Source: Escherichia coli
GTDB lineage: Bacteria > Pseudomonadota > Gammaproteobacteria > Enterobacterales > Enterobacteriaceae
Assembly (NCBI RefSeq): GCF_051903065.1
Contig: NZ_CP178438.1
Reading direction: 5' to 3' (one strand)
Length of the DNA: 64,000 nt
Made by a program: the position numbers and the translations under genes. The notes beneath the pieces were generated by a model. It saw only the letters and a list, made by a program, of their open reading frames with translations. It was not told the origin of the DNA and made no database searches. Shown here piece after piece: positions 44,419-45,658 of the stretch. Each line of letters opens with the position of its first letter. Position 1 is the stretch's first letter.

Positions 44419-44527
44419 TATACTCTAGATAATTCAAGTCGCAGCACATGCAACTTGAAGTATGACGAGTATAGCTTTATTAAAGGGGGAAGCGGTTTTC
44501 CCCCTTAGATGCGTTTCAATTTGCCCG

Positions 44528-44617
44528 TTACTTCAACAAATCAATCAACCGTAACAGAGCCACTAATAACTCCAGTACGGCAATGAGCACGATTAACTTT
44601 TGTGTCAGCGTGTCCAT
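44528..44617 (-). CDS. Type I toxin, ZorO/ZorP-like 29-aa hydrophobic peptide (copy 1)
   Basis: Minus-strand ORF MDTLTQKLIVLIAVLELLVALLRLIDLLK with strong SD (taaggagagcggATG); downstream terminator hairpin gggggaa-gcgg-ttttccccc. Confidence 0.85.
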   Translation of the reverse strand: MDTLTQKLIVLIAVLELLVALLRLIDLLK

Positions 44618-44802
44618 CCGCTCTCCTTATTAAGGAGCGCAACACCAGCACCTTACCCTTACACTGCCTGTCGATACTGGTTTACGTATGTTGGTACGAA
44701 ACGTTGCTCTCCGGATCAGGGCACCGCCTGCGGCACCACCCGTCCAGCAGCCAGGACTTAAAATTGGTCCGATCCGGCACAACCTCCCAACGGGCAGGAT
44801 TA

Positions 44803-44849
44803 TAAATCTCATTCACTGAATTGCAATGGAGTGTGGATATGGTTATAAT
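44803..44849. promoter_or_regulatory. Back-to-back sigma70 promoters sharing one palindromic -35 hexamer TTGCAA (copy 1)
   Basis: -35 ttgcaa 44821-44826; rightward -10 tataat 44844-44849 (17-bp spacer) for orz; leftward -10 (plus-strand attata 44803-44808, 16-bp spacer) for zor. Confidence 0.55.
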
Positions 44850-44856
44850 TTATTCG

Positions 44857-44936
44857 TTGGTACGAAATGTTGCACAATCAGCAAGTTAGCGTCACTGTAG
44901 TAAATAAAAGAACCTGCCTCACCAGCAGGTTTTTTT
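44857..44936 (+). ncRNA. Orz-type antitoxin sRNA (copy 1)
   Basis: Starts after the tataat box, ends at hairpin acctgcctcaccagcaggt + T7; 5' region guugguacgaaauguugc pairs over 18 nt (one G.U) with the zor 5' UTR (plus 44693-44710); ends approximate. Confidence 0.65.
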
Positions 44937-45135
44937 ATTTTCTGCGATCTACTTTCCAGATATTTTTTGCCAATAGCCCACCATAAATATTCACATCCCG
45001 GTCAAATGGTGCGTTGAATATAAAATCGATGAACTTATAAATAAACATGAGTTATATGATGAATTAATAAAAACAGTAATCATTTTATTAAAGGGGGAAG
45101 CGGTTTTCCCCCTTAGATGCGTTTCAATTTGCCCG

Positions 45136-45225
45136 TTACTTCAACAAATCAATCAACCGTAACAGAGCTACTAATAGCTCCAGTACGGCAATGAGCACGG
45201 TTAACTTTTGTGTCAGCGTGTCCAT
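45136..45225 (-). CDS. zorO: Type I toxin ZorO-like 29-aa peptide (copy 2)
   Basis: Minus-strand ORF MDTLTQKLTVLIAVLELLVALLRLIDLLK (differs from copy 1 at residue 9, T vs I); assignment of zorO vs zorP to the two copies is uncertain. Confidence 0.8.
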   Translation of the reverse strand: MDTLTQKLTVLIAVLELLVALLRLIDLLK

Positions 45226-45406
45226 CCGCTCTCCTTATTAAGGAGCGCAACACCAGCACCTTACCCTTACACTGCCTGTCGATACTGGTTTACGTATGTT
45301 GGACCACGATGTTGCACTCCGGATCAGGGCACCACCTGCAGCACCACCCGTCCGGTAGCCAGGACTTGAAATAGGTTCGATCCGGCGCAACGTCCCAACG
45401 GTCTGG

Positions 45407-45457
45407 ATTATAAATCTCATTATCTTAATTGCAACGGGGTCCAGCCGTGGTTATAAT
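45407..45457. promoter_or_regulatory. Back-to-back sigma70 promoters sharing palindromic -35 TTGCAA (copy 2)
   Basis: -35 ttgcaa 45429-45434; rightward tataat 45452-45457; leftward -10 as plus-strand attata 45407-45412. Confidence 0.55.
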
Positions 45458-45464
45458 TCGTTCG

Positions 45465-45547
45465 TTGGAACACGATGTTGCACAGGCTGTGGTGTTAGGC
45501 CTGAAAATAGTAAATAAAAGAACCTGCCTCACCAGCAGGTTTTTTTA
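45465..45547 (+). ncRNA. Orz-type antitoxin sRNA (copy 2)
   Basis: guuggaacacgauguugcac complementary (one mismatch) to the copy-2 zor 5' UTR; terminator acctgcctcaccagcaggt + T-run; ends approximate. Confidence 0.65.
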
Positions 45548-45658
45548 TTTACTATGATCTGCTTTCCAGATATTTTTTGCTCAAACAACTAATGCGCCAA
45601 ACATTTATTGCGCGTAAAATATCGTTTATTTCATTAATACATTTCAGGGATGAATATA

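Follow-up and report, generated by a model that had tools for sequence, protein, structure and literature searches.

Tandem zorO/orzO and zorP/orzP type I toxin-antitoxin units between yehK and yehL in an Escherichia coli genome

The zor-orz locus of Escherichia coli, its mechanism, its copy-number variation and the orphan orzP of K-12 have all been described in the literature between 2010 and 2024 (PMC2887945, PMC3919570, PMC5397157, PMC11264685), and the 2010 paper places zor/orz between yehI/yehK and yehL (PMC2887945). For the EDL933 genes, the overproduced peptide is toxic and the cognate Orz rescues through RNase III (PMC3919570, PMC2887945); the ALLRL residues at ZorO positions 20-24 are reported to be necessary (PMC6669753). 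A 174-nt UTR has been published with the coordinates of its RBS and EAP (PMC5397157), and the promoter hexamers are >99% conserved (PMC11264685). Better growth with aminoglycosides is described in the literature only for multicopy clones. By their descriptions, the E. coli type I systems tisB-istR1 and shoB-ohsC resemble zor/orz in having a divergent sRNA gene, an 18-21-nt pairing far upstream of the RBS in a long leader, 5' processing that frees a standby site, and decay that depends on RNase III, but their toxin and RNA sequences are unrelated and tisB is under SOS control.

We analyzed a 64,000-nt stretch of an E. coli contig (NZ_CP178438.1; the window), in which the genes are ordered yehI-yehK, zor/orz, yehL-yehM-yehP-yehQ. 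We are nearly certain that the region between yehK and yehL consists of two known chromosomal type I toxin-antitoxin units, zorO/orzO beside yehK and zorP/orzP beside yehL. An initial annotation had proposed tandem zor-orz type I units here, and Rfam, the toxin peptides, EDL933 oligonucleotides and the position of the locus all agree with this assignment. The two ~495-bp direct repeats that it described are units of 495 and 497 nt (44476-44970 and 45084-45580), which repeat with a period of 608-610 nt and align globally with 88.9% identity (442/497), far above chance. The oligonucleotides published for zorO, orzO and orzP of EDL933 match the window exactly and identify unit 1 as zorO/orzO and unit 2 as zorP/orzP; EF524, EF976 and EF541 among them fix the sRNA starts. 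The repeats and the two toxin genes are located as follows.

44476-44775 and 45084-45383: direct-repeat family D1, 300 nt, 94% identical, copies spaced 608 nt apart
44898-44970 and 45508-45580: direct-repeat family D2, 73 nt, 95% identical, copies spaced 610 nt apart
44971-45083, no strand: inter-unit spacer, 113 nt, A+T-rich, 29% G+C
44528-44617, minus strand: zorO ORF from the ORF list, 29 aa, MDTLTQKLIVLIAVLELLVALLRLIDLLK, T9I allele of published ZorO
45136-45225, minus strand: zorP-locus ORF from the ORF list, 29 aa, MDTLTQKLTVLIAVLELLVALLRLIDLLK

Similarity between the inter-unit spacer and the other flanks does not exceed that of shuffled controls, and the duplication junction can therefore not be reconstructed. 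RefSeq annotation omits the zor/orz genes in all genomes examined, which is an annotation gap rather than a sign of gene absence.

The closest relative is the EDL933 zorO-orzO/zorP-orzP locus, which has the same genes, order, site, promoters, sRNAs, pairing sites, 174-nt leader and RBS. An O157:H7 genome differs from the window at 18 nucleotides over the full intergenic stretch, and the sRNAs, pairing sites, promoter hexamers and RBS are free of these changes. The peptides do differ: compared with EDL933, the window has ZorO-T9I for ZorO in unit 1, and T3 (the ZorO peptide) for the S3 of ZorP in unit 2.

Both units encode a 29-aa hydrophobic Zor toxin, and translation of the minus-strand ORFs yields exactly the peptides quoted in the initial annotation. 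In unit 2 the peptide matches published ZorO at every residue (PMC6669753), and a cluster look-up returns UniProt names (ZORO_ECO57 for the ZorO peptide). The unit-1 peptide differs from ZorO by T9I alone, at a position where the O157:H7 genome has T9. Both exact peptides exist in public collections, where we find ZorO on at least 1000 contigs, ZorP on 457, an A20S variant on 326 and ZorO-T9I on 74, the latter labelled "hypothetical protein". Two details are strain-specific, the ZorO-T9I allele in unit 1 and a ZorO peptide encoded by the zorP unit. The T9I toxin could differ in potency. It is a minority allele, as would be expected if unit 1 were a decaying copy in this strain with a weakened or inactivated toxin. 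We consider such decay improbable, since the ORF, RBS, promoters, sRNA and pairing site of unit 1 are all intact, the exchange of threonine for isoleucine is conservative within a hydrophobic helix, the necessary ALLRL residues are unaltered, and a paralogue found on genomic islands (see below) likewise has I9.

Upstream of each toxin gene we located a divergent sRNA gene; toxin and sRNA each have their own sigma-70 promoter with TTGCAA and TATAAT hexamers on both strands.

44799-44849, both strands: PzorO and PorzO back to back, -10 elements at 44799-44804 (minus) and 44844-44849 (plus), from the promoter scan
45407-45457, both strands: PzorP and PorzP back to back, common -35 TTGCAA at 45429-45434, from the promoter scan
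44856-44938, plus strand: orzO, sRNA of ~81-83 nt, +1 at G44856, terminator hairpin and U7; RF02083, 88.8 bits, E 2.4e-14
45464-45548, plus strand: orzP, sRNA of ~83-85 nt, +1 at G45464; RF02083, 99.9 bits, E 1.1e-16; published primer EF541

PzorO and PorzO use one palindromic -35 hexamer (TTGCAA, 44821-44826) and score 10/12 matches each in the promoter scan. On the plus strand, both orz promoters read TTGCAA-17-TATAAT (44821-44849 and 45429-45457), and the hexamers are those conserved in the literature. Conceivably, though with low probability, the shared palindromic -35 allows either the toxin or the antitoxin transcript to be initiated, but not both at once. Both sRNAs match the full-length Rfam model RF02083 (OrzO-P) above its gathering threshold of 60 bits, and primer EF976, a 1-nt mutant used for an orzO construct, matches the window from G44856 at all remaining positions. 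The orz terminator folds into a strong hairpin of 14 bp, followed by U7. The plus-strand short RNA ending in a hairpin and T-run, as first read from the raw sequence, is thus confirmed by its promoters, its hairpin and U7, and the Rfam matches; together with the ZorO-identical peptide of unit 2, these place peptide and sRNA alongside known zorO/orzO. Sub-threshold Rfam matches to STnc370 (32 versus 54 bits), the Thr and Trp leaders, isrH and CrcZ were set aside as terminator or A+T-rich look-alikes, and a literature search on STnc370 returned nothing relevant.

The toxin mRNAs have long leaders, in which we identified the following elements.

44618-44791, minus strand: zorO 5' UTR, 174 nt, inferred +1 at G44791, RBS AAGGAG at +164 to +169, EAP at +73 to +102 (44690-44719)
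45226-45399, minus strand: zorP 5' UTR, 174 nt, inferred +1 at G45399
44690-44709, minus strand: target of OrzO within the zorO leader, 73-92 nt ahead of the ATG; repeat family D3, probe EF524
45298-45317, minus strand: OrzP pairing site in the zorP leader, from position-by-position pairing
44483-44506, minus strand: zorO 3' hairpin with a GGGGGAA/UUCCCCC core followed by UUUAAUAAA, from sequence and fold
45091-45114, minus strand: zorP 3' hairpin, from sequence and fold

When the +1 is set 7 nt past the -10 element, the published RBS (+164 to +169), EAP (+73 to +102) and 174-nt UTR coincide with AAGGAG and with the pairing site. The Shine-Dalgarno sequence (AAGGAG, 44623-44628, minus strand) lies 5 nt ahead of the zorO ATG and corresponds to the strong SD of the initial annotation. 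In minimum-free-energy folds, which are predictions only, the RBS would be sequestered in a hairpin, in line with published work, and the 5' end of the full-length leader pairs with the EAP, which becomes more open once 28 nt are removed. At the 3' end, the minus-strand terminator of the initial annotation is present at both units as a 9-bp, G+C-rich hairpin; its U-tract is weak and not canonical, consisting only of UUUAAUAAA, and a consensus terminator scan did not call the hairpin. Even with this poor U-tract, the zorO 3' hairpin is likely to act as a terminator.

Since no regulatory element differs, we carry the published EDL933 mechanism over to the window. In each unit, a sigma-70 promoter would drive the minus-strand mRNA that encodes the 29-aa toxin of the inner membrane, and the back-to-back promoter an sRNA of ~83 nt from the plus strand. 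[quoted passage not shown] The first 18-20 nt of Orz would pair with the 3' part of the EAP and block translation, and pairing would lead to RNase III-dependent decay without Hfq. For transcription, toxicity, processing and repression in this strain we thus rely on the literature.

We next compared the two pairings. Folding of full-length sRNA-mRNA duplexes was uninformative and was replaced by position-by-position pairing over 20 positions. OrzO pairs with its own target through 18 Watson-Crick pairs and 1 G-U pair with 1 mismatch, and OrzP through 19 Watson-Crick pairs with 1 mismatch. The non-cognate combinations form 15 Watson-Crick and 1 G-U or 14 Watson-Crick and 2 G-U pairs, so that cognate pairs reach 19/20 and non-cognate pairs 16/20 with 4 mismatches. 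Duplex energies separate them likewise (cognate z = -6.8 and -6.5; non-cognate z = -3.7 and -2.8). OrzO and OrzP differ at four positions of the 20-nt seed, each matched by a corresponding change in the target. The units have diverged mainly in the pairing target (65% identity) and the sRNA 5' half (80% and 46%), whereas the ORF and 3' end are 98% and the proximal UTR 100% identical. Judged from these complementary changes, co-variation of sRNA 5' end and target appears to insulate the two units from each other. Anatomy, family membership, cognate pairing, position and conservation can all be read directly from the DNA.

Part of the leader has relatives elsewhere. A 113-nt stretch of the zorO leader (44652-44764) shares 74% identity with dinQ leaders on 47 Salmonella, E. 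coli and Klebsiella plasmids, a likeness to the dinQ upstream region that has been reported previously (PMC11264685). The dinQ plasmids differ in carrying another toxin ORF (DinQ), and no orz-like sRNA match is found there.

Strains differ in copy number, carrying no unit, orz only, one unit, or two or more; between about one third and two fifths of E. coli genomes have the two-copy form. Some 30% of E. coli genomes carry an orz gene with conserved promoters but no toxin gene (PMC11264685), and our own sampling agrees: in about a third of genomes the toxins are lost and the yeh genes kept. K-12 had been said to lack the family at this position. The toxins are indeed absent from the site, where zorO/orzO, the zorP ORF and the pairing site are gone, but an intact orzP gene is retained (OrzPmg, PMC11264685), with its first 83 nt and promoter hexamers identical to unit 2 and an equal distance to yehL; of zorP, only the promoter and about 30 nt of the leader are left. 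The locus occupies the same yehK-yehL site in O157:H7 and, outside E. coli, in three other Escherichia species. These species were recovered with a genome-contig DNA pattern that demands an exact V10-L22 core and under-counts, missing E. fergusonii, a reported carrier (Fozo 2010). A copy on an IncF plasmid is embedded with yehI and yehL-yehQ homologues.

The constant position raises a link to the neighbours, in which the terminal orz unit would be coupled to yehLMPQ (MoxR/DUF5682/VWA/SWIM) as an upstream promoter-terminator, a leader module or a regulator. In every locus examined (among them K-12, a single-copy strain, the three other Escherichia species and the IncF plasmid), orz lies co-oriented ~110 nt upstream of the yehL ATG, and this 110-nt spacer hardly changes, even where YehI identity falls to 87-88%. 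A strict, if crude, promoter scan finds no promoter between the orzP terminator and yehL, and the intergenic region upstream of yehL-yehM is H-NS bound, with the genes up in hns/stpA mutants (PMC3686432); this H-NS silencing note is all that our literature search on yehL/M/P/Q returned. The retention of orz with conserved promoters in genomes without toxins also fits such coupling. Yet read-through is expected to be low, given the strong orz terminator, and the Orz 5' ends pair with the yehL leader and start or with yehK mRNA no better than shuffled controls (z = -0.9, -1.6, -0.1 and -0.4). Retention of orz next to yehL may simply mark the end of a recurrent deletion. We therefore find coupling to yehLMPQ unlikely. 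The functional link to the DUF4132 and MoxR neighbours that was initially raised gains no support, as the toxins are lost with yeh genes kept and Orz pairing does not exceed chance; a PADLOC scan of YehK and YehL returned no families, and a reading of the locus as neighbour of a defence island finds no support either.

A merely selfish mobile element that landed by chance between yehK and yehL, the other suggestion made at the outset, is very improbable: copy number does vary between strains, an ERIC-like repeat fragment abuts unit 1 and a diverged relative sits on integrase-bearing islands, but the position is constant in E. coli and three other Escherichia species, transposase, integrase and att-like ends are missing from the flanks, IMG/VR viral contigs give no match to a pattern for both Zor types, a phage collection yields only two low-coverage "unverified" contigs (both with the island paralogue), the plasmid copy travels amid its yeh neighbours, and in-place tandem duplication and deletion account for the variation. 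A resident pair of zor/orz units thus remains our preferred reading.

During these searches we found a diverged zor/orz-like unit on P4-like, integrase-bearing islands of Salmonella enterica and rare E. coli, where it adjoins a tyrosine integrase. It shares with zor/orz a 29-aa toxin (MDML[MT]RKLIVLIAVLELLLALLRLIDLLK), an RBS hairpin, back-to-back promoters with a common TTGCAA, and an sRNA 5' end complementary to the leader ~74-94 nt upstream of the ATG. At the DNA level it is no more than 78-86% identical, it pairs through an entirely different sequence (GCTAGGATTGTATTATCACGC), and its sRNA scores below the Rfam threshold (39-42 versus 60 bits). In E. coli G4/9, a reverse transcriptase gene is part of the island, which sits at a tRNA-Asn gene; on one contig (L012), P4-type isrK and C4 RNA elements follow downstream of the unit.

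Taken together, the tandem Zor/Orz pair between yehK and yehL is well studied and not new, and the locus, a textbook example of a type I toxin-antitoxin pair, contributes little by itself. Its recovery illustrates that reading raw sequence can find real genes missed by an annotation pipeline. The constant placement of orz just upstream of yehL may be of specialist interest: if coupling were true, an orz gene within the H-NS-silenced yehLMPQ control region would explain why a third of genomes keep orz without zor. The island unit, with a new pairing "address" in Salmonella, extends a family known in the literature surveyed only from Escherichia and Shigella.

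The locus lies in a segment of the E. coli chromosome; 1,241 nt around it match strain 23CRST027 at 100% identity, and the genes there run in the order DUF4132 gene, yehI, yehK, a 1.24-kb unannotated gap, yehL, yehM, yehP and yehQ. The initial annotation had described two direct repeats here, each with a 29-aa minus-strand ORF, and these are recovered at the positions it proposed by a repeat finder (blocks of 300 nt at 94% and 73 nt at 95% identity, spaced 608–610 nt), by global alignment (units 88.9% identical) and in the ORF list. A scan against all Rfam families returned two full-length plus-strand matches to the OrzO-P antitoxin family RF02083 (gathering score 60).

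Features of the two repeat units (window coordinates)
44476–44970, direct repeat, unit 1 (repeat finder)
45084–45580, direct repeat, unit 2 (repeat finder)
44528–44617, minus strand, unit-1 toxin ORF, 29 aa, MDTLTQKLIVLIAVLELLVALLRLIDLLK (ORF list)
45136–45225, minus strand, unit-2 toxin ORF, 29 aa, MDTLTQKLTVLIAVLELLVALLRLIDLLK (ORF list)
44863–44936, plus strand, RF02083 match in unit 1, 88.8 bits
45471–45546, plus strand, RF02083 match in unit 2, 99.9 bits
44821–44826 and 45429–45434, both strands, palindromic TTGCAA, the −35 element common to zor and orz promoters (promoter scan)

The naming of the units rests on oligonucleotides listed in the supplement of Wen et al. 2014 (PMC3919570). 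Probe EF524, used for zorO northern blots (GTTGGTACGAAACGTTGCTCTCCG), corresponds to 44690–44713, and primer EF976, a 1-nt mutant made for the orzO construct, matches from G44856 at all other positions. Primer EF541 sets the start of orzP at G45464. By these matches, unit 1 is zorO/orzO and unit 2 zorP/orzP. The O157:H7 genome has the same order, with ZorO adjoining yehK and ZorP (S3) adjoining yehL, and the locus described by Fozo et al. 2010 (PMC2887945), placed between yehI and yehL, is exactly the present one. The unit-2 peptide equals, letter for letter, the ZorO peptide synthesized in PMC6669753. The identification as tandem zor-orz units thus stands on the RF02083 matches, the ZorO peptide identity, the oligonucleotides of the EDL933 paper and the published position: the finding is real, its interpretation is correct, and it is already known in detail. 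None of zorO, zorP, orzO and orzP is present in the RefSeq annotation of the five E. coli loci fetched for comparison (L001–L005), in which the 1.2-kb interval appears empty.

A repeat fragment (44425–44473) abuts the upstream side of unit 1 and recurs at a median of 5 places per E. coli genome; in the single-copy strain Rb-3 (L003, 1430–1545) the same site holds an insertion of a longer form. We take it to resemble the end of an ERIC/IRU element; in Rfam it returned a sub-threshold isrH match alone (22 versus 45 bits). The orz terminator hairpins (44911–44931 and 45521–45541) have an A-run upstream and a T-run downstream, so the scan calls a terminator on the minus strand as well, which would halt read-through from zorP into orzO/zorO and antisense transcription from the yehL side.

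Each unit contains back-to-back promoters (TTGCAA-16-TATAAT on the minus and TTGCAA-17-TATAAT on the plus strand; promoter scan), and RNA polymerase may be unable to hold both simultaneously. The zor and orz starts are symmetric about the common TTGCAA (32.5 nt on each side), and both transcripts start GUUGG. With zor starts set at G44791 and G45399, 7 nt past the −10 element, the leaders measure 174 nt, the published length. The published ribosome-binding site (RBS, +164 to +169) then lands exactly on AAGGAG (44623–44628), and the region exposed after 5′ processing (EAP, +73 to +102) corresponds to 44690–44719, its 3′ part being the Orz pairing site.

Counted position by position, the OrzO/zorO pairing comprises 18 Watson-Crick pairs, 1 G-U pair and 1 mismatch, and OrzP/zorP 19, 0 and 1, compared with 15, 1 and 4 for the crossed pair OrzO/zorP and 14, 2 and 4 for OrzP/zorO. 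Duplex energy z-scores against shuffled targets are −6.8 and −6.5 for the cognate and −3.7 and −2.8 for the crossed pairs. In the alignment, divergence between the units clusters at the RNA contact sites: identity is 98% over the ORF and 3′ end, 100% over the RBS-proximal leader and 65% over the Orz target, and in the sRNAs 80% over the first 20 nt and 46% over the next stretch. All four seed differences between OrzO and OrzP are mirrored in their targets; this seed region corresponds to V1, the discrimination region described by Wen et al. 2014 (PMC3919570).

In minimum-free-energy folds, the 5′ end of the full-length leader (GUUGGGAGGUUGUGCCGGAUC) pairs with the EAP, which is more open once 28 nt are removed from that end, and the RBS lies within a CUCCUU/AAGGAG hairpin in both forms. 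These predictions agree with probing data summarized in PMC5397157. We adopt the published mechanism (PMC3919570, PMC5397157), in which the full-length leader would fold back, cover the EAP and sequester the RBS, 5′ processing would open a putative standby site, and Orz would bind there, block translation and trigger RNase III-dependent decay without Hfq. We infer these steps strongly for the present strain, because its whole intergenic region shows just 18 differences from an O157:H7 genome, all outside the sRNAs, pairing sites, promoter hexamers and RBS. The zorO mRNA 5′ end (GUUGGGAGGUUGU..., 44771–44791, minus strand) has a predicted pairing with the CCAAC...GCAAC segment, which is also the target of the OrzO 5′ end (GUUGGUACGAAAUGUUGC..., 44856–44875, plus strand), and hence resembles an antitoxin mimic acting in cis. 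The region upstream of dinQ on a plasmid (L010, 1501–1615) is 74% identical to 113 nt of the zorO leader (44652–44764); this likeness, present on 47 Salmonella, E. coli and Klebsiella plasmids, has been remarked earlier (PMC11264685).

Comparison with the O157:H7 genome gives two allelic changes in the peptides. Position 44592 yields ZorO T9I, which leaves untouched the ALLRL segment reported to be necessary for toxicity (PMC6669753), and position 45219 yields T3 instead of S3 at the zorP locus, whose peptide therefore equals ZorO. By exact look-up, the T9I peptide occurs on 74 contigs under the name 'hypothetical protein' alone. The corresponding contig counts are at least 1000 for ZorO, 457 for ZorP and 326 for ZorQ, the A20S variant.

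Copy number was assessed on 60 evenly spaced rows out of the 5,444 records, from 5,426 complete E. coli genomes, that matched a query including the yehI, yehK and yehL flanks. Rows were classed by match span, and the classes were checked on loci L002–L005.

Copy-number classes among the 60 sampled rows
Two units, about 19 rows, 6 of them probably of zorQ + zorP type (confirmed on one locus, L004)
One unit, about 18 rows
orz only, as in K-12, about 20 rows
No yehI-yehK-yehL match, 3 rows (match outside the zor/orz locus)

These shares agree broadly with the published 42% two-copy, 25% one-copy, about 30% orz-only and 3% without (n = 2,212 assemblies; PMC11264685). The zorQ + zorP type appears to make up about 10% of the sampled genomes, as checked on L004 alone (strain 99E2750, 3734–4750), where a zorQ-type unit (toxin A20S) adjoins yehK and is followed by a zorP-type unit encoding the ZorO peptide. 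That K-12 lacks the locus, as initially proposed, is true of the toxins but not of orzP, which K-12 keeps together with the two promoters and a remnant of the zorP leader. Its orphan RNA OrzPmg was detected by northern blot (PMC11264685) and appears in current K-12 sRNA lists.

We find no positive evidence for a functional tie of zor/orz to its neighbors. The toxins are gone and the yeh genes kept in about a third of genomes, YehK and YehL matched no defense family in PADLOC, and pairing of OrzO and OrzP to the yehL leader and to yehK mRNA did not exceed that of shuffled controls. At every copy number, the yehL ATG is preceded, about 110 nt upstream, by an orz gene in the same orientation, and the spacer between the orzP terminator and this ATG (45549–45657) hardly varies among E. 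coli and two other Escherichia species, even where YehI is only 87–88% identical; a strict scan found no promoter in it. In K-12, H-NS is reported to bind the intergenic region upstream of yehL, and yehL and yehM go up when hns and stpA are mutated (PMC3686432). Spacing, spacer conservation and H-NS response are compatible with a regulatory role of the orz module for the yehL side, or more simply with conservation of yehL control sequences and a deletion endpoint that recurs, and we regard the regulatory role as improbable.

The locus does not behave as a mobile element, a reading we rejected on its occurrence at the same yehK-yehL site in other species, the lack of any zor/orz match in IMG/VR viral contigs and the yeh genes flanking the plasmid copy. 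A degenerate pattern for the toxin core, searched in representative genomes, places it between yehK and yehL in E. whittamii, Escherichia sp. E1V33 and Escherichia sp. MOD1-EC7003. The 181-kb IncF plasmid NZ_CP103756.1 (L009, 6001–6493) carries one unit, 89% identical and flanked by yehI and by genes homologous to yehL, yehM, yehP and yehQ, whose annotations read MoxR ATPase, DUF5682, VWA and SWIM zinc-finger proteins; the plasmid is conjugative, comes from a blood isolate and is a genuine plasmid with a chromosomal segment. The near-identical 'plasmid' matches fall in records between 365 kb and 4.9 Mb long that seem to be chromosomal sequence filed wrongly.

A diverged zor/orz-like unit is present on two phage-collection contigs (1.5-kb, low-coverage 'UNVERIFIED_ORG' records from phage preparations) and on integrase islands.

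Island zor/orz-like units (contig coordinates)
1039–1400 of contig L011
1–480 of contig L012
8960–9460 of L013 (E. coli G4/9, island at tRNA-Asn)

On the two phage-collection contigs, identity to zor/orz is 78–81% over the ORF and proximal leader and 83–86% over the sRNA terminator. The island unit has the RBS hairpin, the same back-to-back promoters with a common TTGCAA as −35, and an sRNA 5′ end that repeats a leader segment about 74–94 nt upstream of the ATG. However, it would pair through a wholly different sequence (GCTAGGATTGTATTATCACGC; identical over 21 nt in L012, with two G-U changes in L013), and its sRNA scores only 39–42 bits on RF02083, below threshold. The toxin peptide MDMLMRKLIVLIAVLELLLALLRLIDLLK is recorded mainly from Salmonella enterica (313 contigs) and a close variant, MDMLTRKL..., from E. 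coli (238 contigs), the consensus being MDML[MT]RKLIVLIAVLELLLALLRLIDLLK. The unit immediately follows the tyrosine integrase gene of a P4-like island. P4-type isrK and C4 RNA elements lie downstream of it in L012, and the E. coli G4/9 island, located at a tRNA-Asn gene, also carries a reverse transcriptase gene. It was matched at 92% in only 2 of the 5,426 complete E. coli genomes. The papers we searched gave no description of it, and the 2024 survey (PMC11264685) may have met it as 'less conserved Zor'. The island unit lies outside the window and leaves the verdict on the zor/orz finding unchanged.
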